Assembly: GCA_009781445.1 (NCBI GenBank)
Contig: WQYD01000003.1
Coordinates: forward strand, 2,464 to 66,463
Direction of reading: 5' to 3'
Length of the DNA: 64,000 nucleotides
Origin: Bacillota bacterium
GTDB lineage: Bacteria; Bacillota; Clostridia; Christensenellales; DTU072
Below, in pieces: positions 3,685-57,466 of this stretch. Within the stretch, counting starts at the first letter, position 1; every line of letters starts with the position of its first letter. Made by a program: the position numbers and the translations under genes. A model generated the notes under the pieces. It was not told the origin of the DNA. It saw nothing but the letters and a program-made list of their open reading frames with translations, and made no database searches.

Positions 3685-3844
3685 TTTAAACCTCTTTATG
3701 TTTTAAACCTTTTTATGTTTTGAAACCTATTTATATAATGATACGCACGCGCACACGCGTATATATTAACTATATCATATATTAAATGAAATATATTTGT
3801 TTTGGTTTGAAAATACCCCTAAAGTAGTATATACTTTTAATATT

Positions 3845-4699
3845 ATGAGTTATCAAATTGAACTTGTGTGTAAAATCGGCTCTATGGCACTTATCAATAA
3901 GGCTTACGGCGATGTGGATTATAACATTATCGCAAGGCTTTCGCGTGAATTAAAACCGGGGTATGTTTTGGTTACTTCGGGCGCAACCGAAATCGGGCGG
4001 ATTGATTATTTCAAACGGAACGGCAAAGAACTTGAGGGCGGTTGCAAGGAAGATATTAAAACCGATTATGCCTCTCAAGGGCAAATTGTGCTAATGGAAA
4101 CTTACAGAAGATTTATGAATTCTTCCTATTCCTTGCGCCAATTTTTGGTGGAACACCAACATTTTAATGACGAAAAGAAGCGCGAACACCTTAAAAACGC
4201 ATTGCTTCGTTGCCCTCTCGCCAACGCTGTGCCGATAATTAATTATAACGATCCTGTGAGTGATGAGGAAAACCGCAAACTTGAAATCCGCGCCCTGCGT
4301 GAAAAGCACAGCGGAAAAGCAGTGGCGGAATGCGTGGATAATGACGAAACCGCCTCTGAAATAGCCTGCCTTTTAAAGCCTAAGAACTTAATAATCTTCA
4401 CAGGGGTAGACGGAATTTTTACAAATGTAAACGATCCCGATTCATTAGTGAAAGAAATTTCGGCAAAAACCGCAAGCGAAACGGTGGAAAAAATTAACTA
4501 CTACCAAACCTTTTGCTCAGGCGCAAGCCGTGAGGGCGCAAACGGCGCAGGCATGAAACTGGAATTTATTAAGCAAGCGGTAATAAACGGCACAATCGTG
4601 TTTGTGGCGAACAGCAAATATTCTATTTCGGAAATCTTAAGCGGTGCTAAACCGTGTACGAAGATATTTATCAGCGCACAGCGCACAGTGAAGGAATGA
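3845..4699 (+). CDS. Amino-acid kinase family protein (glutamate-5-kinase-like)
   Basis: KIGSMALIN...VLVTSGATEIGR resembles the aspartate/glutamate/uridylate kinase fold. I prefer the ATG at 3845 over the TTG at 3797. The last residues (SAQRTVKE) and the stop codon lie inside repeat 4672-4804. Confidence 0.45.
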   Translation: MSYQIELVCKIGSMALINKAYGDVDYNIIARLSRELKPGYVLVTSGATEIGRIDYFKRNGKELEGGCKEDIKTDYASQGQIVLMETYRRFMNSSYSLRQFLVEHQHFNDEKKREHLKNALLRCPLANAVPIINYNDPVSDEENRKLEIRALREKHSGKAVAECVDNDETASEIACLLKPKNLIIFTGVDGIFTNVNDPDSLVKEISAKTASETVEKINYYQTFCSGASREGANGAGMKLEFIKQAVINGTIVFVANSKYSISEILSGAKPCTKIFISAQRTVKE

Positions 4700-6756: not shown

Positions 6757-6867
6757 TAGCTATCACAAAAATCCGATTGCGCTTACCTAAGGGGTTTTTA
6801 TCTACGGAAGCGTAACAATGGGTATAGTTGGAAACGGCTATGCCTCCCGTATTGGAAAGGAAGCAAT

Positions 6868-8892: not shown

Positions 8893-9747
8893 ATGAAAAA
8901 ACAACGGTTTTTGCAAGCGTTTAGCGCGTATGATTTGATTTTAATCGCGATGCTTACCGCGCTTGCCGTTGCTTTTAAAGTTGTAGTAAAAATGCTTATA
9001 GGACTCATTGCCACACCCCTCGGAATACCGGGGGGTGCTTTGGCAGGCGGATTTTATATGCTTTGGATTCCGCTTACCGTGGCAATAGTGGGAAAGCGCG
9101 GTTCGGCTTTTTTAATGACATTTGTGCAATGCCTTGTGATAATAATCACCGCCATGCCGGGTAGCCACGGTATTTGGACATTTGCCACATACCTGCCACC
9201 TGCTATTTTGGCGGAAGTGGTTATGCTACGCAGAACGCAGGCAAAGCCTGCGAGAGACGAGAGACGAGAGACGAGAGACGAGATAAGGAATGATAACAAT
9301 ATAATTACGAATGACGACTTACGACTTACGAATGATAGAGGTATCAATGAAGATTTCGCAAATCAAAATTCACCACCTCTCGTCTCTCGTCTCTCGTCTC
9401 TCGTCTCTAATCCCTCACAATACACAGTTCTTCACTTCATATTCGCCTGCATTCTTGCAAACCTTGCGGGGACATTCGGAAGTAACCTGCTATTCTTCCG
9501 CCTAGGGTTTGTGCCGTTGTTTTTTGCAATGTCGGCGGGTGCGTTTTCGGGCGCAATGGGCGGTGTGCTTGGGTATTTGGTTTATAAACTTGTGGCAAAA
9601 TCAGGCATTTTTACTGCACACGCAACGCAGTATAAAAATTATAACGAAGAATCGCCAAGTGAATTCTGTGCGCCGAAAGGTGAAACGCCGTGGGAAGAAA
9701 TGAGTCAGCGCACAGCGCATGAAGATATGAAGACGCTACGCTTGTGA
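8893..9747 (+). CDS. Putative ECF-transporter substrate-capture (S) component, carrying an in-frame repeat insertion
   Basis: Polytopic membrane protein (DLILIAMLTALAVAFKVV...) next to ECF A/T genes. Residues encoded by 9253-9408 come from a palindromic element. The C-terminal tail runs into repeat 9705-9958. Confidence 0.45.
   Translation: MKKQRFLQAFSAYDLILIAMLTALAVAFKVVVKMLIGLIATPLGIPGGALAGGFYMLWIPLTVAIVGKRGSAFLMTFVQCLVIIITAMPGSHGIWTFATYLPPAILAEVVMLRRTQAKPARDERRETRDEIRNDNNIITNDDLRLTNDRGINEDFANQNSPPLVSRLSSLVSNPSQYTVLHFIFACILANLAGTFGSNLLFFRLGFVPLFFAMSAGAFSGAMGGVLGYLVYKLVAKSGIFTAHATQYKNYNEESPSEFCAPKGETPWEEMSQRTAHEDMKTLRL
9253..9408. repeat. Family-1 element inserted in frame in a CDS
   Basis: Perfect 30-bp inverted arms, (GAGACGA)x4 at 9253-9282 and (TCGTCTC)x4 at 9379-9408, flank a centre with an ACGACTT array. 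Near-identical copy at 12556-12708. Confidence 0.9.
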
Positions 9748-11366: not shown

Positions 11367-11920
11367 AAAAACCGATTTCAAAAAATGCGATAATCGCCAT
11401 AGTTCTTATCTTCGTTCTCGCCGTGGCATTCGGGGTGGGGCTTTATTTGATTCTTGATTTTAATAAGGAATTTAAAGAACTTTACGAAAGCGAAAAAATC
11501 CGCATAATATCCAAAGATTTTGTGAAAGATTTTTCTTTTGACGAACTTAAAGAATTAGCAACGCCCAAAACCTTTACCGCAACTTACAAGCCAAACCAAC
11601 GCTTGCCGATAACGCGTGAGTACACGGGCTTTTGCCTTTTGGATATTTTTTCAGCACTTGATATTGAACTAAGCAAAAGTAAGGGCGTTTCATTCATGCC
11701 GTCTGACGGGCGCGAAACGGTTTATAATATAAACGACATACTAACCCCAAACAATGTGTTTATTGCTTTTAAGTGGGACGGAAAGGCTTTCCCCAAAGGC
11801 AATGCGGGCATTTCGCCGTATCCAGACGAAAACGGCGGGCCTTTTGTGGTTATCCGTGCCAAAGATTTAGTAAGCACGAACAGAGTAAAGTGGCTTGTGC
11901 AAATTGAGGTTTTATTTTAA
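11363..11920 (+). CDS. Membrane-anchored protein with SUOX-fold (Moco-domain-like) module
   Basis: N-terminal TM. The C-terminal GGPFVVIRAKDLVSTNRVKWLVQIEV resembles the G.P.R..vP......VKW...IEV motif of YedY/sulfite-oxidase-type domains. ATGA overlap with the upstream gene. Confidence 0.45.
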   Translation: MKKPISKNAIIAIVLIFVLAVAFGVGLYLILDFNKEFKELYESEKIRIISKDFVKDFSFDELKELATPKTFTATYKPNQRLPITREYTGFCLLDIFSALDIELSKSKGVSFMPSDGRETVYNINDILTPNNVFIAFKWDGKAFPKGNAGISPYPDENGGPFVVIRAKDLVSTNRVKWLVQIEVLF

Positions 11921-13350
11921 TGGAAACCGTGCTTGAAATTAAAAATTTAACCTTATCTTACGGCGAAAGGATTTTGTGTGAAAACCTTAATTTTAGCGTG
12001 AACGCAGGCGAAATTGTGGGGGTAAGGGGCGGTAACGGCACAGGAAAATCCACCCTGATAAAGCGGATTTCCGCACTTATGCCCGCAAATTTAAACAGTG
12101 AAGGCAGTGTGCTTTTGTACGGTGCGGAAACGCTTGATTTAAACATTAAGGATAGGTGTACCGCCATTGCCACGATTTTCCAAGAACCCGAAGCACAGCT
12201 TTTTTCCTCTTTCGTGGAAGACGAACTTTCCTTTGCAAACGAAAACCTGCGTGTTCAGCGTGAAGAGATAAGAAAAAGGATAAACGCCGTTTCAGAACTT
12301 ACGGGCATTAGCCATTTAACTGATAGCAAATCCGAAAAGCTATCAGGCGGTGAAAAACAGCTTGTGGCAATAGCCTCTGCTATTTCTTCTTATCCGCGCG
12401 TAATCCTCGCAGACGAAATCACCGCACGGCTTGATTTAGAAGCCCGCACAAGAATAAGAACCCTCTTAAAAGATTTTGCCAAAGCAGGCGGTGCGGTTAT
12501 ATTCGTTCACCACACGGAAGAAGACGGGGGGGTTTGTGATAGGGTTATTGAAATTAGAGACGAGAGACGAGAGACGAGAGACGAGATAAGGAATAATAAT
12601 ATAATTACGAATGACGACTTACGACTTACGAATGATAGAGGTATCAATAATGATTCTATAAATCAAAACTCACCACCTCTCGTCTCTCGTCTCTCGTCTC
12701 TCGTCTCTAATCCCCAACAAACAATCGTCCTCAACAACCTTTCTTTCTCATACCTCAAAACTAAAGCCCTGATAAGCAATTTAAGCATGAGTTTTGAAAG
12801 CGGTAAGTGCTATCTTATTACAGGCAAAAACGGTGCAGGGAAAACTACTCTCGGCAAACTTATTTTGGGGCTTTTAAAGCCTCAAAGCGGAAGTGTGGAA
12901 ATCGGCGGTGAGTGCGTGGCTAAAATGCGGATAGGCAGTGTGGCAAAGAAGATAGGTTATGTGTTTCAGAACCCTGATTTGCAGTTTTTCACAAATTCCG
13001 TTGGGGAAGAATGTGAGTTTAGTTTTAAACTTACAAGCGCATTAACCGATAGTGTAAAAGAAAGAATCAATGATTGTTTAGTTAAGTTTGGGCTACAAGA
13101 CTTTAGAGAACGGAATCCCTTAACGCTGTCTACAGGCGAAAAGCAAAGGCTTGCCCTTGCCATAACTTCTTTAAGCGGTGTTAGTTTTTTATTGCTTGAC
13201 GAACCCACTTCTTCTCTTGATAATGAAGCTAAAAACTTTGTGGTTGATTATATTAAACGCTTTGTGGCGGACGGTGGTGGCGCGATAATTATCACGCATG
13301 ACAGCACGCTTTTAAGCCACTTGCCAGAGGGGGTAATTTATGAAATTTGA
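11920..13350 (+). CDS. ECF/ABC transporter ATPase, fused duplicated NBDs (EcfA-EcfA'), with in-frame repeat insertion in the linker
   Basis: Two Walker A sites (GGNGTGKST, GKNGAGKTT), two signatures (LSGGEKQ, LSTGEKQ) and Walker B motifs (ILADE, LLLDEP). TAATG overlap with the upstream gene. Confidence 0.85.
   Translation: METVLEIKNLTLSYGERILCENLNFSVNAGEIVGVRGGNGTGKSTLIKRISALMPANLNSEGSVLLYGAETLDLNIKDRCTAIATIFQEPEAQLFSSFVEDELSFANENLRVQREEIRKRINAVSELTGISHLTDSKSEKLSGGEKQLVAIASAISSYPRVILADEITARLDLEARTRIRTLLKDFAKAGGAVIFVHHTEEDGGVCDRVIEIRDERRETRDEIRNNNIITNDDLRLTNDRGINNDSINQNSPPLVSRLSSLVSNPQQTIVLNNLSFSYLKTKALISNLSMSFESGKCYLITGKNGAGKTTLGKLILGLLKPQSGSVEIGGECVAKMRIGSVAKKIGYVFQNPDLQFFTNSVGEECEFSFKLTSALTDSVKERINDCLVKFGLQDFRERNPLTLSTGEKQRLALAITSLSGVSFLLLDEPTSSLDNEAKNFVVDYIKRFVADGGGAIIITHDSTLLSHLPEGVIYEI
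12556..12708. repeat. Family-1 element inserted in frame between the two ATPase domains
   Basis: Same 30-bp GAGACGA/TCGTCTC arms as 9253-9408. It differs by one 3-nt indel and a few central substitutions, and is translated in the same frame. Confidence 0.9.
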
Positions 13351-20683: not shown

Positions 20684-20706
20684 TTTTTAACGCTTTGCGT
20701 TAAAAA
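20684..20706. terminator. Bidirectional terminator-like palindrome overlapping a stop codon
   Basis: tttttaacgc-ttt-gcgttaaaaa. The right arm contains the TAA (complement) of CDS 20700..21614. Confidence 0.5.
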
Positions 20707-21614
20707 TTCACCCTCACATTCCCCGTTGTGGCTTTGGCGGTGAGGCTTTTTTCGCCGTCTATCTTGATATAGGGTTTTCCTACGCTTTGGTGATTTAAGT
20801 AGCATTTTCCTGTGTTTGCGGAAAGGTGCAATCTGTAATCTGAAAGCGTGCCGTTAACTTTAATGTCAATATCCCCTGTGGTTACCTCTACGGAAATTTT
20901 TGGTGAGGTTACACCGCTTAAAGATACCGCGCCTGTGGTGGCTTTTGCGCTAAGTTCGCTACTCGCGGTAACATTTTCACACCTTATGTACCCTGTGGTT
21001 GAATTAAGCCTTACCGCGAGGGCTTGAGAATTTGCAAGCCTTATATAACCTGTGGTGCTTTTTACATTAATTTCGTTTGCGGTTATTCCGCCTAAGTTCA
21101 CATATCCTGTGGTTACCTCAGCTTGAAACTTTGAAAATGCGCCAAGGTTGCTTCCTCTTATATCTGCGGTTTTTGCGCTTACGCTTAATTCGCCGTTAAA
21201 TCCGCTTGGCAAAAGAATCTTAACCGCAAAAAAACTTGAAGGCAATCTTGCGAAACCTATGAACCCCCATGCTTGCCATTGCTTTTTGCTTTGGGCATCG
21301 TCATGATAGATTCTAAGGCTTTCCCCCTGCTGGTTTATCTTAATATCTAATAGCCTAATGTGCTTTTCACTTTTGGGGTAAGATATTGTGATAGCTTCCA
21401 CATTCGCCCTTTCAATTACCACAGGGCTTCGGCTACCGCCTTCCATGGATATTTTGCTAATATTGCCCTCTGCCGTATATTCTTCCCTTGTAAAATCTTC
21501 CGCCACGGCGAAATTGAGGTTTTCAATATCAAACCCTATAACCGAAAAGCCTGCAAGCGCAAGCACCAAACCAAGTGCTATGCACACAACTAAAACTCCT
21601 ACTAATGCTTTCAT
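20700..21614 (-). CDS. DUF4097-family beta-repeat protein (putative adhesin-like), membrane anchored
   Basis: N-terminal TM, then repeated ..TTG.I.L.. strands (TTGYVNL, TTGYIRL, TTGAVSL, TTGDIDI, TTGNVRV). Confidence 0.7.
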   Translation of the reverse strand: MKALVGVLVVCIALGLVLALAGFSVIGFDIENLNFAVAEDFTREEYTAEGNISKISMEGGSRSPVVIERANVEAITISYPKSEKHIRLLDIKINQQGESLRIYHDDAQSKKQWQAWGFIGFARLPSSFFAVKILLPSGFNGELSVSAKTADIRGSNLGAFSKFQAEVTTGYVNLGGITANEINVKSTTGYIRLANSQALAVRLNSTTGYIRCENVTASSELSAKATTGAVSLSGVTSPKISVEVTTGDIDIKVNGTLSDYRLHLSANTGKCYLNHQSVGKPYIKIDGEKSLTAKATTGNVRVNF

Positions 21615-21663: not shown

Positions 21664-22431
21664 TTAAATTTGAGGATTGGGGCTATTAACCGCCTTGTTC
21701 TTTTTTCCGTAAAACGCTTTCGCCGATGCCACCGCGCCTTTTAAAAGATATTTAAGGAATATCTTTCCAAGTTTGTAAGAAATTATTGCAAGAATTCCAA
21801 GAACCCCTGTGGCAATAAGCAATCCCCCTGCCGTGAATAACGCCCACGGCGTTCCCTCTGTGGCAGAAAGCACCGCCCCTGGGATAACCGCAAGCAGGCA
21901 AGCAAAGGAAGAAACCGCAAGCCCAAGAATCGTACCGCCCACCGCAAACACCGCACTTATAAACAGCACAAAAAACACAATCCCCACAGGAATCAAAATC
22001 GGCGCACTAAAAAGCCTTGCAACCATTGCAATGGTACTGCCTTTTTTAGAGGGTGCAGCTTGCAGGTTGCAGGGTGCAGGGTTGGATTGGTGATTGGTGA
22101 TTGGTGGTTGGTGATTGGTGGCGGAATTATTATTATTAAATAATCCTTCATTCTGAATTCTGAATTCTGAATTCTTAATTAGTCCTTCATTGTGCGCTGT
22201 GCGCTGTGCGCTGTGCATTGAAGAAAGCCTTTCCCCCGCAAGTTCAGCTTGAATTTGACGGCTAATCATTCTTATATCGCCAAGGTTATGCACCACGCGA
22301 TATTCATTTTCGCCTGCCTCAATTTTATCGCTGATAAGTTCGTCATAATAATTTAGCACCCTGTTAAGTTCGTCTGCACTGAACCCTTTTAGGTAAGACG
22401 ATAGTACACTTAAAAATTCATGTTTGTTCAT
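21664..22431 (-). CDS. DUF1700-like membrane protein with repeat-derived linker
   Basis: N-terminus MNKHEFLSVLSSYLKGFSADE...YYDELI is DUF1700-like and the C-terminal half has TM helices. The central ~55 aa are encoded by element 22051-22217. Confidence 0.6.
   Translation of the reverse strand: MNKHEFLSVLSSYLKGFSADELNRVLNYYDELISDKIEAGENEYRVVHNLGDIRMISRQIQAELAGERLSSMHSAQRTAHNEGLIKNSEFRIQNEGLFNNNNSATNHQPPITNHQSNPAPCNLQAAPSKKGSTIAMVARLFSAPILIPVGIVFFVLFISAVFAVGGTILGLAVSSFACLLAVIPGAVLSATEGTPWALFTAGGLLIATGVLGILAIISYKLGKIFLKYLLKGAVASAKAFYGKKNKAVNSPNPQI
22051..22217. repeat. Family-1 module concatenate inside a CDS (non-palindromic)
   Basis: TGCAGGG-type array, GGTGATT array, CTGAATT array, tccttcat junctions, then a (TGTGCGC)x3 array. 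All are read through in frame on the minus strand. Confidence 0.85.
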
Positions 22432-22452: not shown

Positions 22453-22764
22453 TTATCTAAAATTCGCAATTATAAAATCGTACGCTTTAACTAACTCACG
22501 CCATTCTTCGGTGAAGTTAAAAAGTTTTTCGCGCCCTTCACGCGTTATACCGTAATACTTCCTTAGCCTGCCGTTGTGTTCCCTGCTATAGGTAATCAGC
22601 GCGCCTTGCAATTCAAGCCTTCTCAAAATCGGATATAGCGTTGATTCACTGATTTCCACCACAGGGGTTATATCTTGAATAATCCTATAGCCGTAAGAAT
22701 CCCCGCGCATTAGCGAGGCAAGCACTATCGCATTTAACAGCCCTTTCTTTAATTGAACTTCCAC
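22453..22764 (-). CDS. PadR-family transcriptional regulator
   Basis: GTG start at 22764, 6 nt after GGGAGG, giving (M)EVQLKKGLLNAIVLASL...GYRI...LYPILRRLE. The ORF-track start at 22815 would include the promoter. Confidence 0.8.
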   Translation of the reverse strand: MEVQLKKGLLNAIVLASLMRGDSYGYRIIQDITPVVEISESTLYPILRRLELQGALITYSREHNGRLRKYYGITREGREKLFNFTEEWRELVKAYDFIIANFR

Positions 22765-22786: not shown

Positions 22787-22815
22787 ATTATACATTGCAT
22801 AGTATGCGGTGTCAA
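22787..22815 (-). promoter_or_regulatory. Consensus sigma-70 promoter of the padR operon
   Basis: On the minus strand: TTGACA (22815-22810), a 17-nt spacer, TATAAT (22792-22787). Confidence 0.65.
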
Positions 22816-22859: not shown

Positions 22860-23016
22860 CAGCGCACAACGCACAGCGCACAGCGCACAATGAAGGAATC
22901 ATTTATTGATGAGATTTAGATTCCACCATTCGTAAATCGTAAGTCGTAAGTCGTCATTACTCTTAATGAGATTTAGAATCCACCATTGTGCGCTGTGCGC
23001 TGTGCGTTGTGCGCTG
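22860..23016. repeat. Family-1 element with duplicated core
   Basis: (CAGCGCA)x4 - aatgaaggaatc - core 1 (gatgagatttagattccaccatt) - (CGTAAGT)x3 - core 2 (taatgagatttagaatccaccatt) - (GTGCGCT)x4. Confidence 0.9.
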
Positions 23017-23689
23017 TTTTGCGGTTTATGAAATAAACAATAAAAAAGAACCCCGCAAGCAAAGCAAACAGCCCAACATAATATATCGCGTAAAATCCGC
23101 TTATCGCACTTGAGTCAATAATGCCGTTAAAGAGGTTTCCTTCCGCAAGATCCAAAATTACATAACTGCCCTGCGGGTTTATAAGCCACCTCATAAAGAA
23201 TGCGTAGCCCACGGATATGCCCGTGAAAAGAGGGGCTTGCCTTATGTAATGCCTATCAAGTTTGTGGGTAATTAAAAGCGTAAGCCCTGATAGATATAGC
23301 AGTGCGTGATTAAAAGTTGCCATTATAAAAAGGAAAGTTCCGTCATTTTCAAAGAGGTATATTGCTGGGGTGGCAATCCCTGTAAGGAAGTAAAAGAACC
23401 CTGCCACAGGCGCGCAAAACACGGCAAAATTTATTAGCGGTTTTTTATTGGTAAGCACTGCAAGCGAAAAAACAAAATAGCTGATTGCGCTGAATTCAAT
23501 AGGCACTTTGTGGTGAAGCCCCACTATTTGCCAATAAATATATTCAGTAATTTTATATGTTAAGAAAAATATTGCTGAGGAATAAAGCAGAATTTTTGAC
23601 GCTTTTTTGTTATCTTTAAATATGCCGAACACGGCAAGATTTAAGCCTATAAAAATCAGAATTAACAGCAGAGAAAACAGATAAATCAT
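22973..23689 (-). CDS. Polytopic membrane protein (hypothetical)
   Basis: About 7 hydrophobic segments. I prefer the ATG at 23689 (MIYLFSLLL...). The C-terminal [15 protein letters not shown] and the stop lie in repeat 22860-23016. Confidence 0.45.
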   Translation of the reverse strand: MIYLFSLLLILIFIGLNLAVFGIFKDNKKASKILLYSSAIFFLTYKITEYIYWQIVGLHHKVPIEFSAISYFVFSLAVLTNKKPLINFAVFCAPVAGFFYFLTGIATPAIYLFENDGTFLFIMATFNHALLYLSGLTLLITHKLDRHYIRQAPLFTGISVGYAFFMRWLINPQGSYVILDLAEGNLFNGIIDSSAISGFYAIYYVGLFALLAGFFFIVYFINRKTAHNAQRTAHNGGF

Positions 23690-23756
23690 ATGTAATTTTA
23701 TCTTATCACAGTAAAAAAGCCTAAGCAAGCGTGTTTACAAAAAAGGATAAATTCCA

Positions 23757-24065: not shown

Positions 24066-27000
24066 TTATCTACGCGGTGAACGGCTGTAACGGCGTCCTG
24101 CGTGAGTTCTGTCTTTCCGCTTGAAAATCATGCTAAAGAAGAACAGAATGATTAACAGCGCAACACCGCCGATTGCAAACCCAAGAACATAATTCATATA
24201 TTCAGGCATTTCAGGAATCCTTAATCCGCCCACGCTTATGGAACGCACAGGGATATAATTCTCTGAATCAAAGTTCTCGCCTGCAAACAGCACCTCAACC
24301 ACAAACGCTTGGTTCGCGCTTATGCCGTTAAACACATTACTGCTTTGCCCCGGTGCAATTTCATTGCCCTCCAAATCAATCAATCTGTACACAGTGCCTG
24401 CGGGCGCATTGGTTGAAATAACATGGATAGTACCGTCCTCATTTCTTGTTACGCGGATATCAATATTAAATTCTGCCCTGTTTATAGTTAGAATTGCACC
24501 TATGCGGGCAACCTCAAAGCCGTAGTGCATTATAACAGCGGTAACATCGTATTGCCCTGCGTTCACTGGGAATGTGGTAAGCTGAAGCCCGTCCGACATT
24601 CTTATAAAGCTATAGTAAACCGATACGCCCTCTTGGGTAAAGCCTTGCGGTTGCGAACCGAAGTTCACTGCCCCTGGGGATTTCGCATTGCCGTCATACA
24701 CATATTCTGCGTCCCCCACAACTATTGCATTGAACGCATTGGCGGTAATCCTCAATGTGGTTGTTACCGTTTCAAATGTGTAGTTATCCGCCACTATTGA
24801 AAGCACGAATTCGTAATCACCAAGAAGCGTGGGGTTAGCTTCGCTTCCGTCTTTATAATAATTGGTAAACACTGTGATATTCTCAATATCGTTTCCGAAC
24901 AGCCCCAATATATTATATGTTGCTTGCTTAGCCGTACCGCTGTACTTGTGTTCAAGCCCTGCGATTGACGCGGTAAGAATTGCTTTAAAGATTTCAAAGT
25001 GGAACATGGTTTCGCCGTCATAGCTATAGTTTCCGAATTCGTCTTCAAAGCTGATAACCACAATGTATTTGCCTGCACCGCTTGCGTTTTCCACGATTTC
25101 ATAACCGCTTGGCACGCTGATTCCGAATGCGCCCCCGCTTGCGTTTTTGGGTGCGGGATTTCCTGCATTTACATATGTTTCACGCATGAAAATCATATGC
25201 GGAATAACCTTATAATCTTCGTCATACTGCGCAAATAAATTGATATTTGCGTTACCGCCGTTGAAGCTTAATTCGCTAATAAATTCTTCTTTTAGTTCCA
25301 CTTCGCGTGCGTGAATATCAAAGGAATAAGCGTAAACCTCAGTGAGTTCGCTGTTAGGATTTTGAAGCCTTACTTCCACGCTGTAAGTTCCCACATTACG
25401 CACTTGGCTTACTGGAATCTCATTTCCGTTTCTAAAGTACACGAATATTAAATCGCTTGAAATTTCCTCACCGCCGTCAAAAGCGAATGCTTTTAAGGTT
25501 TGCGTAAGCGCGCCGATTCCGTTTTCTTTTGCAGAGAACTGGAATGTTTTTCCGTTAGGCGCGTCCGATTCGTCAAGCACAGCTTCCGCCCTGCTTATCG
25601 TAAATGTTATGCCCGAAACCACGAAGGGGTGAATTGTGTTAGGCGAAGAAACGGTGAACGAAACAACGAAACTTCCTGCGCCCCTAATTTCCTTACCGCC
25701 TAAATCTGCCACGAACGATAAGCCGTGCGCATTGGGCAGGTTGGTTATTACAGGGGTTGTGATTTCGCCGTTGTACACCCTTGTGGCGTTATTGAATAAA
25801 AGTTCGGCTTGCAAGAAGTCCTCTGTGTACATTGCCCTTGCAATCACGAACACCGCGCTTAGCCCTGCGCTTGGCATTTCAAAATTAGAATCGTTTACCA
25901 CAAGGTTAACCACATATTCGCCTGCGTTCACGGGGACTACTTGGGTGCTTAAATCGTCTGAACGGAAGAAGTATTTTTCTAAATCCGCAACGGTGAAGCC
26001 GTTTCCTTGGGCATCTTTAAATAAGAAGGAAGCAATGTAATGCTTGCTTAGCCCGTCATACACCACCGCGTTTCCAGTTGCCTCTGCAAGGCTTAAAGCC
26101 CTTGGCATAACAACGATTTCAAAAGCGGTTTCGCTTAACTCATAATATGCGTTTGCCAAGGTGTTAAGGCTTAAGGTAACCAAGTACGCGCCTGCGTTCT
26201 TAACCGCGCTTGCAACCGCGCCGTTAAGCCTTATATCCTTATCAATAGTAAGGGCAACGCCACTTACAACAGGGAATGCTTGTGTGGAAGCCACCACTTC
26301 AAACTCTTCGCCAGAGTAAACGAACTGCGTGCTTGAAGTAAGTGAGGACTGAACCAAAATCTTGCTTATATAAATAAGGATACTAATATTAGCTGAGGAC
26401 GCGTCAAGCAACACATTACCGCCAACCACATTCACGGTTATGGCGTTTGCACCCACGCTAAGAGGTTGGTTGCTTATGAATCCGCCGAACTGCGTGCTTG
26501 CAATAAAGCTGTTCACAATGAATGCGTTATCAGGGAATAAGGAATTAAGAACTGAGTTAATCTCTTCCGTAATACCGCCTTGGAACGCGCTAAACGATGC
26601 AAGATATTCCACCCTTTCGCTTTCGCCGATTGAGATATCAATGCTAAAGTTTTCCACCGTAAACGGCGCAACATTTAGCGTGATTACATATGTTGCATTG
26701 TAATAAACACTGTTTTCATTGAGGCTTAAAGCGAACAAATCGTTATAGCTGTTCACGGTTAATTCATTAAGATTTACACCGCCGTTTGGTTGAAAGATTA
26801 GCCCCTTACTTGCAAAGTTAGCCTCTGCCCTGTTCACGGCAAATGCTCTGCCAAGTTCGTCAATATCATTTATATCAAGGGTATCCGTGCTAACGCTTTC
26901 CACGGTGTAATCACTTAAGGAATAAAGTTTTGAAAGCTCAATTTCCGCAAGCACATTAGCACGGCGCATTGTAAGCGTTACGGATAAATCCGCCACCTCA

Positions 27001-30000
27001 TAGTTAGAAGCCAAGCCGTTTAACATTGCGTAAGGGTTATTATCAAAATCGTTTTCCTTATTGAAATCAATTCTGAATTCATAGCCCACACCGCTGATAA
27101 ATTGAAGCTGTGTAACCGAAAGCGTGATTAAACCAAGTGCCTCAGAGGGCTTAACGAAATCACTTGCATTAGCATGAAGAACATATGCGGAAGCACTTGA
27201 GAAATCATTTCCGCCTGCTGTGTAATTGATTACCGCACCGCTGTTAACCGCGCCACCGCCAAAGAAGTTTATGGAAACAGGCAGGTTCTTTTTTGTAACC
27301 TCAAACACATATTGGGGAACTGCCGAAGCCACCACATAGTTCACGCTTGCAAAGCCTGCCGAATTGGCTACATATGCAAGGGTGTAAGAATCTGCATTAA
27401 GATATTCGTCATTAAGCGGAACGGAAACACCGAAGCCGTTTCTTAAAGTAAGCCCAAGCCTTATTAGGCGGTTATCCGTTTCACCCACCACAAGCTGTTC
27501 GCCGAACAAATTAAGCGCGTTGATTTCGGCTATCGTCATGCTTTCAAAGTCAAGATCCACCGAACTTGCGCGCATACTTCCGTACTCGTTTTGAAGGTTC
27601 GCAAGCCTGCTTAAGTTAAGCGTGAGTTGCCTCGGGCGGATTTGCACCACAAGCCTATTGCCGTTTGCAAGAAGCAAATAGCTTCCGATTGCCTCAATGT
27701 TATCTATATCATAATTCCTTTGCGCGCTTAAATAATTTATGCTTGCAAAGTAGTCGCCCACATCACCAAGAGTTCCCGCGCCTATTCTCTCAAGATTCAC
27801 TTCCACCGTGCTTCTAACTTCTGCACCAGCGGGAAGGTTCGTAACATTTGCGCCACCGTTAAACACGCTGAAATCATTTAACGCGCCAAGTTCGTCATAG
27901 GTAAGGGCGAATGTTCCGCTGTAATTTATGCTTAGAAGCAAGCGCAGAATCTCAATTGGGAAACTGCCGATATCAAGCGCAAAATTAAAGTTTTGGCTTT
28001 GGTTTGCGCCTGCTTGAAGCGACCAGAAATAGTTGCCTGCGTTCACTGCCTGCACGCCGTTTTCGTCCGAAGCCGTAACGGTAACGCCTGCAAAATACCC
28101 TGCCACATAAGTGCGCAAGTTGCCCTCAACTATATTTCCGTTTAAGTATACTTCATATGAAAGTGCGGTTAAAAGCCTTGTGATTACTGCGCCTGTGTAG
28201 TTCGCGCTGTTAGAGGTTGAACCTATAGCAATGTCTATTGTAATCGCTTCAATTACATATGTTAACACCACATTGCCGAAGCTATAATTGGCTACAGTTT
28301 CGTCACTTAAATTAACCGTGTAAATGCCTGCGTTTCTAAAGCCCACAGCGGTTATATTATCACCCGCGGGATTCTTAAATTGATACGCGCCTTGCAACAC
28401 ATTGTATATACCTGCGCTGTCCTTTGAATTATCCCATGCGGTAACGCCAAGCATTTCATAATCATTAAGCACGATATATCCGCTTGCGTCAAACGCACGG
28501 CTGAATGCTGTTTTGCTGAACGATACAGCGCGCCTTGTGATTGAGAGTGCGCCGTTCACAAACGAAATATTATAGTTATCCGAAGTGAAACCGCCTATGC
28601 TGATTACATATGAATCACCCACCGCACTCTGTTCGTTTGCGCTAAGGATTTGGATATTTAGAGTACCGCCTAAGTCTTGATAAGTGTCCTCACCAAGTAA
28701 CGAATCGCCGATTGAAGTTCTGAAAATTACATTGCTAATGCTTAAAGAAGGATTAGCTTCACCGTACACACGGCTTATGTTTTTGGCTATAACTTGAAGC
28801 GAAGCAGGGGTTATTATTTTTGTTTCTGTAAGCCCCGAAACCGCAAGCTGATAGTTATCATTGCTTGGTGCGTTAAAGCCCGTTACGGTTAATGTGTGCG
28901 TTCCCACATTCCTAAAATCATTTTGTTCTTGCGTAACAAAGGAAACAACTTCGCCGTACGCAGCGGCTAAAGGAAGGGCAACAGGGTTAAATTTTACACC
29001 CGAATAAACCGCCGTTTCAAAACCGCTGAACGAAACGGTAAGAGTGAATTTGGTAACGGTGAGCGTACCGCCCACAAATGCAATATCATAGTTTGGTGAA
29101 GAAACACCGTCCACGATAATCTCATATTCCGCCACATTTAAATGCCCCGTTTCGGCAAGCCTTGCGTTAAGCGTGCCACTTAGAACAGAGGCATTTTCGC
29201 CCTGTGCAAACGGTGAGAATCCATATGAAAAGCTTGGCGTTCCGCCGTAAACCATGGCGATGTTATCTGCCCTTACGGTTAATGCCATGGGGGCAATGTT
29301 CCATGTTACTGAAAGATCAAAAACACTGATTTCATATAGGTTTGTGGTTTCCGCACTTATGGTTGTGGTGTGCGTTCCTGCGTTTCTTGCGCTTGCATTA
29401 ACTAATTGAATTATATCGCCGTTAACGGTTGCACCGCTTATTGAAACAGTCTTATCTTCGTTGCTGTAAATTGCGTTTTGCGGTAGTAGCCAAGTAACAT
29501 TTAGGTTTCGTTTATTTACAGTTATGGTTGAACCTGAAAACAGAATGTCATAATTATCTGAAGTCAGCCCGCTTACCGTAACAGGATATGTGCCGGGTAC
29601 GGAACGCGCGTCAGCCACGGTGGAAATAACTAATTTACTGTTAGTTGCCGTTTCCACAGATTCTATTGTTTGCCCCCCAACCAATCCGCTAACGCTATAT
29701 TGCAGTACGGGGTTAGGATTGCCGTACTGTCTGCTACCGGCAGGATTGGCTTGAATTGATAGGCTTGCCCTGTTGATTACATATGAAATTTCGTCCACGG
29801 AAGGAATTTCGTAATTATTGCGATCCGATAAATCAATAACTTTTGCAGTGTATGTTCCTGCGTTTATTGCACTTCCGCCCGAAACGGTGGTGGTGATTGT
29901 TTCGCCGTTTGCAGGGTTGGTAACAGTGGCGGTAACGCTAACCGGCCCACCGATATAAGTAAGCCCTGTATGCCCGTTCCATTGAAGCCCTACCACGCGT

Positions 30001-32327
30001 TTGGTAATTGTGATTGTGCCTGTGGGGAAAGAGATATCATAGTTGTTAGACGAGAATCCGCTTGGGGTAACCACGCGCTGAGAACCTGCCACGGTGGTTG
30101 TGGTGGCATCGTGTGCATAGCTTATTGAACCGCTGAGGACACTAACCGTTTCGCCGTTCACAAAACCGCTTGCGGTGTAGCCAAGCATGCTTGCATTAAA
30201 ACTGCCGTAATCAGTGGTTACATTGTTTGCCCTTATCGTGAGAGGCGCAGGGAAGATTGACCATGTTTCAGAGGTGTTACCCATAACCACATTGTACCTT
30301 GTGAGGGTGGTTTGGATTATGGAAGCGGTGTAACCCCCTGCGTTCGTTTCGGTGTTTCCCGAAAGCAAAATGCTATCACCGTTCACAAGGTTGGTGCTTG
30401 ACGCGGTAACCGTTTGAGGCACGCCTGTGTAAAGCGCGTAACCATTCCCCGGTTTGTGCCATGTAACGCTTATGCTTCTTCTTTCTATCGTGAGTTGCGC
30501 GTTGGTGGTTGAAATTTCATAGTTGCCCGAAGTGAGGGAATTAACCGTTATTGTGTAAGTCCCCGGTAAATCCGTAACAGTCGCATTTGTGGTTGCGCCG
30601 TGCGTTCCCCAACCGGTGAGAACCGTGCTTGCTTGTTCGCCGTTCACCAGCCCGGTAACCGTTAGGCTTGGGGCAGGGTTGGCGTCACCGTATTGGCGGG
30701 ATTGGTTTCCTGCCACCACTGAAAGCGTTGCCCTTGTTATGTTCCATGCTTGGGAAGAGTTAGAGGGTAACGCATAGTTAGAATTTTGAATAGTTGCCGA
30801 AGCGGTATAGCTTCCCACATTGGTTGCCTTAGTGTTAGCAAAACTTACCACGCTTGCTTGGCTTGCACCAAGTAAGCCCGACACGGTAGGTTCATGCGTT
30901 TGTTCCACACCCGAATAGGGGCGCGAACTGCTTGGCCACGAAAAAACTAAAGGCGCAGGGTTTATGGTGAACGCATAGTTTACCTCACCTATCGTGGTAC
31001 TGCTACCATTCCTCAGCACCGCCCGCAGTCGGTAACTGCCTGCATTTGTGGGGGCGGTAACACCTATGTTCGTGCCTGCCGAATTTTGGTAATACGGCGA
31101 GGTAGACCAAGCTACCCCTGTGGGCAGTCCCCCCCCGCTTGGCAAGGTTACAGTAGGCCCTTGCGCCGAACCGCTGAATGTGTACGAACTACCGCCCGAA
31201 ATTGTAAAAGATACGAAGTTTGCAGTAAGTGTGATTGCCCTGCCGTTATAGCTTACCTCACCTGCAATTGAGGGGGTTAGCGTGGGGCTTGCGTTGCTTA
31301 TATAGGTTGCACCTGTAATGTTTGCAGACCAATCTCTAAAGTAATAGTTAGCGTTAGGGCTTGCGGTGTTTGCAAGCATACCAGTAGTGCCGTTAGACGG
31401 AAGCGTAACGGCAAGGCTTGTTCTTGTAAGAGAACCGCCCGCACCGCCTGCCGCACCGTTAGTGGTGATGCCATAGGTGTGCGTTGAAGCGCTGTAAGTC
31501 CATGTAATTGTAACGCTATTTACAGTTAGATTCGCATAAACCCTCGCCCTGCTTCCGCCTGCTGAACCTGAGTTGCAGGTTGCGTGCTGATAGGATTGGT
31601 ATTCAAGGCGGATACCCGTCATGTTAGTTGCTGCGGCAAAGCTCGCAGTGTTGCTATTTCTTGCGCCGGTATTTGAGCCGGTAAAGGTGGTTGTGCCACG
31701 GCTTGTAACTGTGCCACTTACATTAGAGTATATTTCTGACCAGCCTTCGTATCTGCTCCCGCCACCAGTGCTTCCGCTTATAGAACCGCTCCATATGCCG
31801 TTTGTAACCACAGATATATTGGTAATCTTGCCACTAGATATTGCACGCAAAACATCCCCTGTAAATGTAATGTTATATTGGAATCTGAGCATTGCGTGCG
31901 CCCTTTTATCATTACCTGCGATAACCGCCTTGTAATCTGATTCCATATCCGCTGTCCAACCGCCTCTTACTGTGGAGTTTGACCAGCTTGCACCGGGAGT
32001 CCCGCCGGCATCTATATTCACCACATGGAGTGCGTTGCTACTTGGGGCTGCGTTGGGAATATTTGTGCTTCCGTTGTTGTTACCAGAACGGTTACCCGAA
32101 AGATCATGGTTCATACGGCGGTTATTATGGCTATTATTATTGTTATCCCTGCCGTTCCACCCAGGTAAAGCGGCATCTGCCGATTCAATAACTTCTCTAT
32201 CAAAAATTGCAGGGGCAAGCCGTCCAAGGCTGAACACCCCCATGGTAAATAACAGCGTAAAGCAAATAAACAGCCCTAAGCCAAGCAGTAAATATGCTGA
32301 TAATCTTCTTTTTGTGTTTGTTTTCAT
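24066..32327 (-). CDS. Giant cell-surface repeat protein (MBG-domain-like repeats), 2753 aa
   Basis: N-terminal signal/anchor and an Asn-rich segment. At least a dozen repeats carry YG..NP.L.....G.VNGE...L.G...GTY.I......S.NY.I.F..G.L.I. C-terminal TM (FAIGGVALLIILFFFSMIF) plus a basic tail; AGAGGTGA RBS. Confidence 0.85.
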   Translation of the reverse strand: MKTNTKRRLSAYLLLGLGLFICFTLLFTMGVFSLGRLAPAIFDREVIESADAALPGWNGRDNNNNSHNNRRMNHDLSGNRSGNNNGSTNIPNAAPSSNALHVVNIDAGGTPGASWSNSTVRGGWTADMESDYKAVIAGNDKRAHAMLRFQYNITFTGDVLRAISSGKITNISVVTNGIWSGSISGSTGGGSRYEGWSEIYSNVSGTVTSRGTTTFTGSNTGARNSNTASFAAATNMTGIRLEYQSYQHATCNSGSAGGSRARVYANLTVNSVTITWTYSASTHTYGITTNGAAGGAGGSLTRTSLAVTLPSNGTTGMLANTASPNANYYFRDWSANITGATYISNASPTLTPSIAGEVSYNGRAITLTANFVSFTISGGSSYTFSGSAQGPTVTLPSGGGLPTGVAWSTSPYYQNSAGTNIGVTAPTNAGSYRLRAVLRNGSSTTIGEVNYAFTINPAPLVFSWPSSSRPYSGVEQTHEPTVSGLLGASQASVVSFANTKATNVGSYTASATIQNSNYALPSNSSQAWNITRATLSVVAGNQSRQYGDANPAPSLTVTGLVNGEQASTVLTGWGTHGATTNATVTDLPGTYTITVNSLTSGNYEISTTNAQLTIERRSISVTWHKPGNGYALYTGVPQTVTASSTNLVNGDSILLSGNTETNAGGYTASIIQTTLTRYNVVMGNTSETWSIFPAPLTIRANNVTTDYGSFNASMLGYTASGFVNGETVSVLSGSISYAHDATTTTVAGSQRVVTPSGFSSNNYDISFPTGTITITKRVVGLQWNGHTGLTYIGGPVSVTATVTNPANGETITTTVSGGSAINAGTYTAKVIDLSDRNNYEIPSVDEISYVINRASLSIQANPAGSRQYGNPNPVLQYSVSGLVGGQTIESVETATNSKLVISTVADARSVPGTYPVTVSGLTSDNYDILFSGSTITVNKRNLNVTWLLPQNAIYSNEDKTVSISGATVNGDIIQLVNASARNAGTHTTTISAETTNLYEISVFDLSVTWNIAPMALTVRADNIAMVYGGTPSFSYGFSPFAQGENASVLSGTLNARLAETGHLNVAEYEIIVDGVSSPNYDIAFVGGTLTVTKFTLTVSFSGFETAVYSGVKFNPVALPLAAAYGEVVSFVTQEQNDFRNVGTHTLTVTGFNAPSNDNYQLAVSGLTETKIITPASLQVIAKNISRVYGEANPSLSISNVIFRTSIGDSLLGEDTYQDLGGTLNIQILSANEQSAVGDSYVISIGGFTSDNYNISFVNGALSITRRAVSFSKTAFSRAFDASGYIVLNDYEMLGVTAWDNSKDSAGIYNVLQGAYQFKNPAGDNITAVGFRNAGIYTVNLSDETVANYSFGNVVLTYVIEAITIDIAIGSTSNSANYTGAVITRLLTALSYEVYLNGNIVEGNLRTYVAGYFAGVTVTASDENGVQAVNAGNYFWSLQAGANQSQNFNFALDIGSFPIEILRLLLSINYSGTFALTYDELGALNDFSVFNGGANVTNLPAGAEVRSTVEVNLERIGAGTLGDVGDYFASINYLSAQRNYDIDNIEAIGSYLLLANGNRLVVQIRPRQLTLNLSRLANLQNEYGSMRASSVDLDFESMTIAEINALNLFGEQLVVGETDNRLIRLGLTLRNGFGVSVPLNDEYLNADSYTLAYVANSAGFASVNYVVASAVPQYVFEVTKKNLPVSINFFGGGAVNSGAVINYTAGGNDFSSASAYVLHANASDFVKPSEALGLITLSVTQLQFISGVGYEFRIDFNKENDFDNNPYAMLNGLASNYEVADLSVTLTMRRANVLAEIELSKLYSLSDYTVESVSTDTLDINDIDELGRAFAVNRAEANFASKGLIFQPNGGVNLNELTVNSYNDLFALSLNENSVYYNATYVITLNVAPFTVENFSIDISIGESERVEYLASFSAFQGGITEEINSVLNSLFPDNAFIVNSFIASTQFGGFISNQPLSVGANAITVNVVGGNVLLDASSANISILIYISKILVQSSLTSSTQFVYSGEEFEVVASTQAFPVVSGVALTIDKDIRLNGAVASAVKNAGAYLVTLSLNTLANAYYELSETAFEIVVMPRALSLAEATGNAVVYDGLSKHYIASFLFKDAQGNGFTVADLEKYFFRSDDLSTQVVPVNAGEYVVNLVVNDSNFEMPSAGLSAVFVIARAMYTEDFLQAELLFNNATRVYNGEITTPVITNLPNAHGLSFVADLGGKEIRGAGSFVVSFTVSSPNTIHPFVVSGITFTISRAEAVLDESDAPNGKTFQFSAKENGIGALTQTLKAFAFDGGEEISSDLIFVYFRNGNEIPVSQVRNVGTYSVEVRLQNPNSELTEVYAYSFDIHAREVELKEEFISELSFNGGNANINLFAQYDEDYKVIPHMIFMRETYVNAGNPAPKNASGGAFGISVPSGYEIVENASGAGKYIVVISFEDEFGNYSYDGETMFHFEIFKAILTASIAGLEHKYSGTAKQATYNILGLFGNDIENITVFTNYYKDGSEANPTLLGDYEFVLSIVADNYTFETVTTTLRITANAFNAIVVGDAEYVYDGNAKSPGAVNFGSQPQGFTQEGVSVYYSFIRMSDGLQLTTFPVNAGQYDVTAVIMHYGFEVARIGAILTINRAEFNIDIRVTRNEDGTIHVISTNAPAGTVYRLIDLEGNEIAPGQSSNVFNGISANQAFVVEVLFAGENFDSENYIPVRSISVGGLRIPEMPEYMNYVLGFAIGGVALLIILFFFSMIFKRKDRTHAGRRYSRSPRR

Positions 32328-32341
32328 AGTTCACCTCTTTT

Positions 32342-32470
32342 TCAGCGCGAAGCGCACAATGGTGGTTTTTTTAATAATGATATTTAGAATCCTTCTCGTT
32401 TCATGTTTCTCGTTTCATGTTTCTCGTTTCATGTTTCTCGTTTCACACGCTACGCATACGCGTAGCGCGC
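32342..32470. repeat. Family-1 element with 14-nt tandem repeat, in the 5' leader of the giant gene
   Basis: cagcgcgaagcgcacaatggtgg - core taataatgatatttagaatcc - (TTCTCGTTTCATGT)x4 - hairpin cgctacg..cgtagcg. Confidence 0.85.
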
Positions 32471-37699: not shown

Positions 37700-37787
37700 A
37701 ATTAAGAATTCAGAATTCAGAATTCAGAATTGTGGATTAATTAATATTGAAATTAAAATTCCGCCATGTTTCTCGTTTCTCGTTTCA
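37700..37787. repeat. Family-1 element (short)
   Basis: (AAGAATT/CAGAATT)x4 - gtggattaattaat - degenerate core attccgccat - (GTTTCTC)x2.5. Confidence 0.8.
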
Positions 37788-37790
37788 CTT

Positions 37791-37823
37791 TATAAAAATA
37801 TGCAGGACTTTCGCCCTGCATAT
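37791..37823 (-). terminator. Rho-independent terminator downstream of lipoprotein gene 37849..39297
   Basis: atatgcagg / cctgcatat stem with an 8-nt loop and TTTTT on the minus strand. It directly abuts repeat 37700-37787. Confidence 0.6.
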
Positions 37824-45805: not shown

Positions 45806-45813
45806 GATTTTTT

Positions 45814-46025
45814 TGGTGATTGGTGATTTGTGGTTGGTGGTTGGTATTTCAGCGCACAGCGCACAACGCACAGCGCACAGTGAAGGAATTATTTATTTAG
45901 ATACGAAGTGCGAATTGTGAATTACCTAATTTTCAGTTACCGACTGAAAAATTGCTTGTGTTAATTTGTTAATAATGAGATTTAGAATCCGCCATTGCGC
46001 GCTGTGCGCTGTGCGCTGTGCGCTG
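45814..46025. repeat. Family-1 composite element
   Basis: GGTGATT-type array (45814-45846) - (CAGCGCA)x4 - agtgaaggaatt - degenerate GTACGAA array - small hairpin tttcagt/actgaaa - core - (GCGCTGT)x3. Confidence 0.9.
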
Positions 46026-50012: not shown

Positions 50013-50163
50013 TTTAATTCAGAATTCAGAATGCAGAATTATGGAATTATTTATTTAGGTACGAAGTACAAGGTACGAAGTACGAATTATGGATTAATTA
50101 ACTAATAATGAGATTTAGATTCCTTCATGTTTATCGTTTATCGTTTCTCGTTTCTCGTTTCAT
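50013..50163. repeat. Family-1 module concatenate in a divergent intergenic region
   Basis: (CAGAATT)x3 - atggaattatttatttag - (GTACGAA)x4 - ttatggattaattaactaataatgagatttagattccttcat - (GTTT[A/C]TC)x4. Confidence 0.9.
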
Positions 50164-57279: not shown

Positions 57280-57466
57280 CGCACAACGCACAGCGCACAG
57301 CGCACAATGAAGGAATTATTTATTAAGTACGAAGTACGAATTGTGGATTAATTAACTAATAATGATATTTAGATTCCAACCCTGCACCCTGCATCCTGCA
57401 ACCTGCACCCTCAATAATAATATATAGAATCCACCATTGTGCGCTGTGCGCTGTGCATTGTGCGCT
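57280..57466. repeat. Family-1 element with five modules
   Basis: (GCGCACA)x4 - atgaaggaatt - (GTACGAA)x2 - ttgtggattaattaactaataatgatatttagattcc - (CCTGCA[C/T/A])x4 - second partial core - (TGTGCGC)x4. Confidence 0.9.

Follow-up and report, generated by a model that had tools for sequence, protein, structure and literature searches.

How can a segment of a membrane protein be built wholly of short tandem repeats and yet leave its gene open from end to end? The question is raised by a gene at positions 21664..22431 (minus strand) of a 64,000-nt stretch of contig WQYD01000003.1, from a Bacillota bacterium of the Christensenellales, which we refer to as the window. The gene encodes a HAAS (DUF1700-like) membrane protein of 255 amino acids, and its single intact open reading frame (ORF) encloses an element made of heptamer modules (22048..22220, minus strand). 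According to the codon table and an alignment of orthologues, this element supplies, in frame, the entire interdomain linker (residues 72-128). We propose that the linker is probably a copy of a lineage-specific, multi-copy modular element, selfish or neutral in character, which is tolerated by its host gene and translated as a disordered spacer.

Along the plus strand from 22040 to 22225, an array of GGGTGCA type is followed by one of TTGGTGA type, then by an AT-rich stretch that closes with the junction word TCCTTCAT, an array of TCTGAAT, TCCTTCAT once more and an array of TGTGCGC. Tandem Repeats Finder recovers the four arrays in this reading as AGGGTGC (4.7 copies, 84% matches, 22050-22082), GATTGGT (5.1 copies, 93% matches, 22085-22120), ATTCTGA (4.4 copies, 95% matches, 22150-22180) and TGTGCGC (3.7 copies, 100% matches, 22191-22216), and the two junction words can be read directly from the sequence at 22144-22151 and 22183-22190. 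Both the arrays and the words had been reported in a preliminary description of the locus, as had a translation across the region, which the ORF at 21664..22431 reproduces exactly.

On the coding (minus) strand the same DNA resolves into modules. Module 1 (22183..22220) is formed by 4.3 units of CAATGCA/CAGCGCA followed by the tail AATGAAGGA, read ..HNEG, and Module 2 (22144..22182) by 4.4 units of AATTAAG/AATTCAG followed by the same tail, read ..QNEG. An AT-rich loop with a reversed tail (TTATTTAATAATAATAATTCCGCC) comes next (22120..22143), common to the copies in the GH31, MscL, PFL-activase and AddA genes described below. Module 3 (22085..22120) consists of 5.1 units of CACCAAT; it matches the MscL copy at 87% identity, and an intergenic array of its type lies at 45813-45845. 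Module 4 (22050..22082) consists of 4.7 units of ACCCTGC in the unit-variant order of the intergenic array at 57379-57411, from which it differs at 2 positions, with its TCCA prefix and ACCCTC end. The overall order is thus a CAGCGCA array running into its tail, an AATTCAG array running into its tail, the loop, a tail in reverse leading into the CACCAAT array, and the ACCCTGC array. The layout is convergent, as in hairpin elements, with a pair of forward modules on one side of the AT-rich loop and a reversed tail plus arrays on the other. The encoded peptide is polar, of low complexity and ~57-58 residues long, and it is bounded by conserved flanks, ...QIQAELAGERLSS before and KKGST...LFSAP after. 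Its sequence-derived tryptic peptides include TAHNEGLIK and IQNEGLFNNNNSATNHQPPITNHQSNPAPCNLQAAPSK.

The HAAS copy belongs to a large family. Arrays of period 7 number 49 in the window, whereas 50 sequences simulated with a first-order Markov model averaged 1.1 and never exceeded 5; periods of 8-11 are not represented at all. Of the junction word ATGAAGGAWT there are 8 occurrences, against an expectation of 0.35 for the window, and seven of these lie inside elements. The 49 arrays group into ~19 elements with common units and junction words; some 10 arrays fall wholly within three elements embedded in coding sequences (CDSs), and the arrays as a whole are predominantly intergenic. CAGCGCA/TGTGCGC accounts for 16 arrays, the other units being AATTCAG, AATTACG, AAGTACG, ACGAGAG, CACCAAT and ACCCTGC. 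Reading the window elements side by side reveals a grammar in which each module is a (heptamer)n array followed by a tail ATG(A/G)(A/T)GGA(A/T)T. The left-arm modules run forward; an AT-rich loop follows, often ...GGATTCTAAATCTCATTATT / AATAATGAGATTTAGAATCC...; and the right-arm modules are reversed, with the reversed tail preceding the array. Most intergenic copies have arms that are complementary and give long hairpins, although two intergenic copies (37700-37791 and 50016-50161) have arms of different composition.

The window holds two further repeats. Inside one intergenic element lies an exact 39-nt tandem duplication (63349-63427, 2.0 copies, 100%), with (TAGGCCA)n and (CCCTATG)n arms on its flanks. 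At 32393-32445, a 14-nt unit, TTCTCGTTTCATGT, made of two alternating heptamers, is repeated 3.8 times with 100% identity, just upstream of a gene for a 2753-aa MBG_2-domain surface protein (24066..32327, minus strand).

That the linker is a copy, and not a private repeat, is also supported by other genes of the same genome. With residues 69-131 as the query, 1.84 billion representative proteins were scanned by HMMER without an index, and cluster and contig look-ups followed. All carriers of related peptides belong to the metagenome-assembled genome (MAG) of the window (accessions MCL26298xx-26313xx; contigs in ENA ERZ27264051): a UvrD/AddA-like helicase with four in-frame sites, NFACT/RqcH with two, and a PD-(D/E)XK AddB-like nuclease, a radical-SAM PFL-activating enzyme, a GH31 protein and MscL with one each. 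Together with the HAAS gene this amounts to 11 sites in 7 proteins, to which the two palindromic ECF-transporter sites described below are added. Element copies are also present on four other contigs of the MAG, one of which (L051) carries a Spo0A gene. At the DNA level, the left half of the HAAS copy (22129-22216) is 93% identical to the copy in the GH31 gene, and the right half (22087-22172) is 87% identical to that in mscL.

The in-gene copies are non-palindromic concatenates, located in addB and at four sites in addA (contig L136, 985-1207, 2388-2566, 4361-4498, 5179-5351 and 5666-5791) and in the PFL-activase, GH31 and mscL genes (in that order as listed, L137 1620-1870, L051 4205-4340 and L002 10468-10555). 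The PFL-activase and the first AddA site carry the same composite, four AATTCAG units with a tail, two successive blocks of four CAGCGCA units each with a tail, a loop and four CCTGCAA units, and composites are therefore copied as units. In the PFL-activase, moreover, the direction of change can be read: the protein has 308 amino acids against 236-245 in its relatives, and in an alignment with 7 homologues the ~75-aa module segment stands out as one clean insertion after the CxxxCxxC motif. Its best-named relatives are Christensenellaceae and Clostridia MAGs (~50-57% identity); these and the Spo0A gene on L051 support a Bacillota host. The preliminary description had called the HAAS linker an insertion; the polarity that this word implies is seen in the PFL-activase copy only, the orthologues of the HAAS gene being 42% and 33% identical and having longer linkers. 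Differences between NCBI and ENA in the lengths of RqcH and the PFL-activase were considered as array polymorphism and rejected, as they reflect different start-codon calls. Likewise, a word CCACAGGCGA found 3' of the GH31 and MscL copies was set aside as coincidence, since within the window it occurs in ordinary coding DNA away from elements.

One filter on elements inside genes is the reading frame. A heptamer array cycles through all three frames every three units, so that a unit containing TGA, TAA or TAG closes its whole strand. In the HAAS copy, CTGAATT and TGATTGG close the plus strand, and the element is therefore readable on the minus strand only, where the tail ATGAAGGA closes one more frame through its TGA. 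We counted stops in six frames for 18 window elements, 14 of them of at least 130 nt. Among the latter, the three that lie inside CDSs (HAAS, ECF-S and ECF-A) each have exactly one of six frames open, which is the frame used, and all 11 intergenic elements are closed in all six (Fisher p ~0.003). Across the genome, the module tails of the 7 proteins are all in one frame (22/22), read [QH]N[ECG]G, and the modules at the 10 further protein sites have the same orientation and frame as the HAAS copy.

Hairpin potential separates two kinds of in-gene copy. Two palindromic elements of the form (CGAGAGA)n...(CTCTCGT)n lie in frame in the window, one (9251-9408) in an ECF/cobalt-type permease gene resembling an ECF S-component (CDS 8893..9747) and the other (12556-12708) in a gene for a double ABC ATPase (CDS 11920..13350). 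They belong to the same operon, are 92% identical to each other, and both encode ...RDERRETRDEIRN...NQNSPPLVSRLSSLVSNP; for the palindromic ECF-gene copy the RNA fold is -69.5 kcal/mol (z = -8.0), including a 31-bp stem. By contrast, no long complementary arms were found in the HAAS copy, whose RNA fold of -30.5 kcal/mol (z = -3.2) contains small local hairpins only, as anticipated in the preliminary description. Complementary arms are also missing from all nine in-CDS copies of this module set checked at the DNA level. The further claim that module concatenates exist independently of palindromy gains support from these non-palindromic in-CDS copies and from the two intergenic copies with unlike arms. 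No Rfam family matches any element, the sole Rfam match in the window being a Moco/tungsten riboswitch elsewhere (RF01055, 57.7 bits, 6762-6876), which lies ahead of a 672-aa lipoprotein-like gene and the ECF-type transporter operon.

The host gene itself is well defined. Its N-terminal domain (residues 5-58, 22258..22419, minus strand) matches the HAAS family PF22564 with 31.1 bits against a Pfam gathering cut-off of 27, as do both of its orthologues (P0002 and P0003), and no match to PF08006 (DUF1700) itself was found in Pfam at E<=0.01. The HAAS domain has been described as partly carved from DUF1700 (Ravi et al. 2024, PMC11237479). At what may be the position of the family's GxP kink in helix 3 (PMC11237479), L50-G51-D52-I53 is invariant in all three orthologues, with the G present and the P absent. 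On the 3' side of the element, with the frame kept, a hydrophobic membrane region (residues ~143-219, 21775..22005, minus strand) is conserved in both orthologues, and AlphaFold2 models its hydrophobic segments as long helices. The model, built on a 3-sequence alignment, has a mean pLDDT (AlphaFold2's per-residue confidence) of 61.7, with values of 86-91 for residues 1-60, including the HAAS domain, and below 50 for residues 75-143. The location of the repeats between a DUF1700-type domain and the transmembrane (TM) region, as first described, is thus confirmed by the alignment and agrees with the model.

The gene is the middle member of a PadR-HAAS-DUF4097 set, the triad of the preliminary description with its central domain now assigned to HAAS. 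Directly upstream, on the same strand and after a 21-nt gap, lies a gene for a PadR-family winged helix-turn-helix regulator (22453..22764; Pfam PadR 59.6 bits; 103 aa as called in the ENA assembly, L052 9668-9979), and directly downstream a gene for a DUF4097 toastrack protein (20700..21614, minus strand, 67.8 bits) with a hydrophobic anchor at its N-terminus. A promoter-like site of the sigma-70 type, TTGACA-17-TATAAT with 12/12 matches, precedes the three genes (22787..22815, minus strand), and Shine-Dalgarno-like sequences stand ahead of the HAAS and DUF4097 start codons. Within the element, the search for a promoter or terminator gave only a weak 9/12 match.

Only two orthologues of the HAAS protein were found among 5.8 billion proteins, P0002 (42% identity) and P0003 (33%). 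The alignment that the preliminary description had asked for has invariant blocks as far as ...QIQAELAGER, which resume at KKGS/KKNT...LFS.P.LIP.G and continue across the membrane region, so that the fusion of HAAS domain, linker and membrane region is present in all three proteins. The linkers themselves are unrelated: 58 residues here against ~115 low-complexity residues in P0002 and P0003. That of P0003 is rich in K, Q, P and Y and free of heptamers. In P0002, encoded on a JGI metagenome contig (L001) that keeps the PadR-HAAS-DUF4097 order, the linker carries its own, different heptamer element (L001 610-875), in frame and partly palindromic. Its arms, (GATGGGA)4 ... (CTCCCAT)4, are complementary (fold -90.9 kcal/mol, z = -7.5), and it includes a directly repeated (CAATGCA)n-CAATTGCGGT module whose tail, CAATTGCGGT, translates as 'HNCG', again in the same frame. 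The HAAS linker would have been colonised either repeatedly or anciently. On the same contig, (TAACTGA)x4.6 directly follows the DUF4097 stop codon (L001 2314-2345), the only place where TAACTGA was seen.

A scan of GTDB genomes with the orthologue alignment returned 48 HAAS loci from other Bacillota, none from a sister genome, with at most 47% identity and mostly limited to the N-terminal domain. These loci are essentially array-free (<=0.09 arrays per kb, except one on a 2-kb contig), compared with 0.77 per kb in the window and 2.5 per kb in L001. A metagenome scan with the 17-mer CAGCGCACARTGAAGGA gave at least 83 matches, most of them apparently due to chance; of five loci that were read, four have an array beside the match and three show the full grammar (L074, L082 and L099, i.e. 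JGI contigs Ga0123353_10042241, Ga0123353_10001054 and Ga0209755_10382408), as hairpin elements with the tail CAATGAAGGA and different units. Since the 48 other HAAS loci are near array-free while L001, L074, L082 and L099 carry the grammar, the element family marks a small group of uncultured relatives.

Mechanistically, the element or a parent composite would have been copied into the HAAS gene. The copy would have persisted because, of six possible readings, the one in its orientation and frame alone is free of stops, its length keeps the membrane domain in frame, and the target site is a disordered tether whose sequence is irrelevant. Transcription and translation would then yield a polar spacer of low complexity, 57 residues long, that joins the HAAS domain, cytoplasmic and PadR-binding, to its anchor and sensor in the membrane. 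More generally, an element would survive only where the ORF stays intact and the protein tolerates extra polar sequence. We infer from this pattern that the HAAS copy arose by insertion and represents selfish or neutral DNA in a permissive site, with no dedicated functional device. Spread by template switching between arrays would fit the shuffled module order and the junctions at arrays, and is offered as speculation.

Several points weigh against the linker being such an inserted and tolerated copy. The mobility of the in-gene elements is deduced from the similarity of the copies: no consistent flanking direct repeat indicating a target-site duplication (TSD) was found at the HAAS, MscL, GH31, PFL-activase and AddA-1 sites, the HAAS copy has no terminal inverted repeats (TIRs), and no candidate transposase was found. 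No close orthologue or sister strain of the HAAS protein that could show the ancestral state of the linker is present among the 5.8 billion proteins, and the orthologue with 42% identity has a heptamer element at the same place that starts with a similar (CARYGCN)n array, so that colonisation could be old rather than recent. There is also a survivorship bias, since the search for other in-CDS copies went by way of annotated, intact proteins and would have missed disrupted genes. All 11 in-CDS copies of this module set have no hairpin arms even though CAGCGCA/TGTGCGC arms would be stop-free, and stop-codon filtering alone does not fully explain this absence. Finally, translation of the linker is a prediction from its sequence, and the low pLDDT of residues 75-143, which fits a disordered tether, is weak as evidence of disorder given the shallow alignment. 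Two TSD candidates were rejected: GCGGAC around the MscL copy is probably inside the element, since the AddA-4 peptide starts alike, and the two GCCTTT words around the HAAS copy are separated by 188 nt, a distance not divisible by three, and are absent at the other sites.

The absence of hairpin arms is also an argument for the first of the alternatives, in which the embedded sequence is kept for a function in RNA or DNA, as a platform bound by a protein that recognises heptamers, a signal for the processing or stability of the mRNA, or a pause in translation between the two domains, the peptide being of no consequence in itself. In-CDS copies of this module set consistently have no long hairpins even where the arms would be stop-free, which hints at selection on the nucleic acid; the fold z-score of -3.2 points to a degree of local structure; and TAACTGA heptamers of Beggiatoaceae and cyanobacteria have been suggested to bind post-transcriptional regulators (PMC4679880). 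However, no candidate binding protein was identified, the module order varies from gene to gene, and the host genes have no common functional theme. We regard a nucleic-acid function as unlikely.

No better placed is the idea that the four 7-nt tracts form a phase-variation device, in which a frameshift caused by gain or loss of a unit would separate the HAAS domain from its anchor in the membrane and turn PadR control on or off in a subpopulation. The unit length is not a multiple of three, the CDS contains four tracts of 3.7-5.1 units, and paralogous arrays vary from 2.7 to 8.3 units, so tracts do change length over time. Nevertheless, these tracts are short for efficient slippage, and no repeat-number polymorphism was seen between the two assemblies of this locus, although both derive from one sample. 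The same tracts also occur in housekeeping genes (addA, addB, PFL-activase, rqcH and the ECF transporter), where on/off switching is implausible, and this points to frameshift liability as a by-product and not a designed switch. Dedicated phase variation is thus improbable, the liability at the 7-nt tracts being a side effect.

Far less credible is the view that the linker is native to the gene, its low complexity having arisen on the spot through local replication slippage with no relation to the intergenic elements. Both orthologues do have long low-complexity linkers, that of P0003 without heptamers; but copies in unrelated genes and between genes match the HAAS modules, complete with tails, loop and unit-variant order, at 87-94% identity, and independent slippage would not rebuild the junction words or a common variant order.

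Equally remote is a gene that is broken, split into a soluble HAAS protein and a separate membrane protein around an intergenic element (the outcome that the preliminary description had named as fatal to its claim), or a chimera induced by repeats: the elements are overwhelmingly intergenic, repeats can mislead assemblers and an ATG (M136) follows just after the element, but the frame used has no stop codon, both orthologues have the HAAS-linker-membrane fusion with no internal Met conserved in the three-sequence alignment, the gene order in L001 is identical, the modules are shorter than 40 nt with the whole element (~173 nt) near a typical read length, and two assemblies agree base for base. 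The second of these, L052, is a separate ENA assembly of the same organism and sample, 99.99% identical to the window over 20,768 nt without gaps; it encodes an identical 255-aa protein, and its two differences both lie in another gene. Because of the stop-free frame, the flanks conserved in both orthologues and the agreeing assemblies, the HAAS gene is intact, neither split nor an assembly chimera.

Returning to the linker as a tolerated copy of a repeat element, a broader claim can be made, tentatively and with slightly less than even confidence: that uncultured Christensenellales-like Clostridia harbour an undescribed combinatorial family of (7-mer)n-plus-tail elements, including a translated, coding-compatible, non-hairpin subclass that has colonised the loops and linkers of many proteins. 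If true, this would be a Firmicute counterpart of the phenomenon of Rickettsia palindromic elements (RPEs), with hosts spanning DNA-repair, ribosome-rescue, glycyl-radical-activating and transporter proteins and with frameshift-prone 7-nt tracts in each host gene. Its spread might then proceed by template switching and not by transposition, as neither TSDs nor TIRs were seen. We found no description of the family in the literature searched, the coverage of which was incomplete so that novelty is unproven, and the wider phenomenon appears undescribed.

In-frame colonisation of genes by repeats is best known from Rickettsia and bears on how selfish DNA may create new protein segments. The present case differs in its free-living, gut-type Clostridia lineage, in its modular heptamer architecture and in its number of sites, of which a single genome has at least 13 that look translated, spread over at least 9 proteins. 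It would provide a natural test of where proteins accept ~30-90 residues of arbitrary polar sequence, and would bear on stop-codon content and hairpin potential as filters of mobile DNA in genes, and on whether 7-nt tracts render ordinary genes phase-variable. The elements also shape gene ends. An amino-acid-kinase-family ORF (3770..4699) ends ...ISAQRTVKE* within a CAGCGCA array and tail (4672-4699), and a TMEM164-like ORF (22973..23728, minus strand) ends within a TGTGCGC array and junction (22973-23017); the elements thus donate C-termini and stop codons to genes. For annotation, such segments are a warning, as they inflate protein lengths and create spurious similarity between unrelated proteins.

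Compared with known systems, the locus resembles the HAAS-PadR dyad with Toastrack (Ravi et al. 2024, PMC11237479) in its N-terminal HAAS domain, stand-alone PadR neighbour, fused multi-TM region and DUF4097 neighbour. It departs from that dyad in having a HAAS-TM linker built of repeat-element DNA and, apparently, a 'GxP' kink that reads G-D-I, as it does in both orthologues. Building on the proposal made in PMC11237479, a fully replaceable linker would favour tethering or sequestration over a rigid coupling of sensor and HAAS domain.

As in contingency loci based on simple sequence repeats, tandem units that are not a multiple of three lie in a CDS and a change of unit number shifts the frame. 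Unlike in those loci, there are four short tracts of different units instead of one long tract, and such tracts also occur in housekeeping genes. With BOX, ERIC, Correia/NEMIS and REP/BIME/REPIN repeats the family shares small size, lack of autonomy, multiple copies, a mostly intergenic location and the capacity to form hairpins. BOX and BIME are likewise modular, with variable module numbers. The family differs from repeats resembling miniature inverted-repeat transposable elements in that its variable part consists of tandem heptamers, and neither TIRs, TSDs nor a partner transposase (e.g. RAYT) were recognised.

The closest behavioural parallel is found in the RPEs (Ogata et al. 2000, summarised in PMC10969869), described in that summary as dispersed elements of ~100-200 nt that often lie in frame in unrelated genes. 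As far as the summary portrays them, the likeness extends to a multi-copy dispersed family, in-frame location in unrelated and often essential genes, a preserved ORF, and peptides placed in loops or linkers. In the same portrayal, RPEs are single-consensus palindromes of an alphaproteobacterial endosymbiont, whereas here combinatorial 7-nt arrays with tails are found in a Clostridia-like Bacillota. Palindromy itself is lacking in the HAAS copy (z = -3.2) and present in the ECF copies and the L001 element.

In material, the nearest relatives are other heptamers. In cyanobacteria, short tandem heptanucleotide repeats are known as STRR. TAACTGA heptamers form abundant intergenic direct repeats in Beggiatoaceae, cyanobacteria and Bacteroidetes, for which an argument from stop codons in all frames has been made (PMC4679880). 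Like STRR and TAACTGA repeats, the arrays described here have ~3-6 copies, are mainly intergenic and occasionally in ORFs, and are limited in orientation by stop codons. They differ in units and lineage, in the coexistence of many unit types, in their conserved tails, and in their assembly into hairpin or hetero-arm composites. To our knowledge, internal, multi-module, in-frame copies in housekeeping proteins have not been described for either STRR or TAACTGA repeats. Taken globally, the elements match the RPEs in their behaviour, and resemble STRR and TAACTGA repeats in the material of which they are made.

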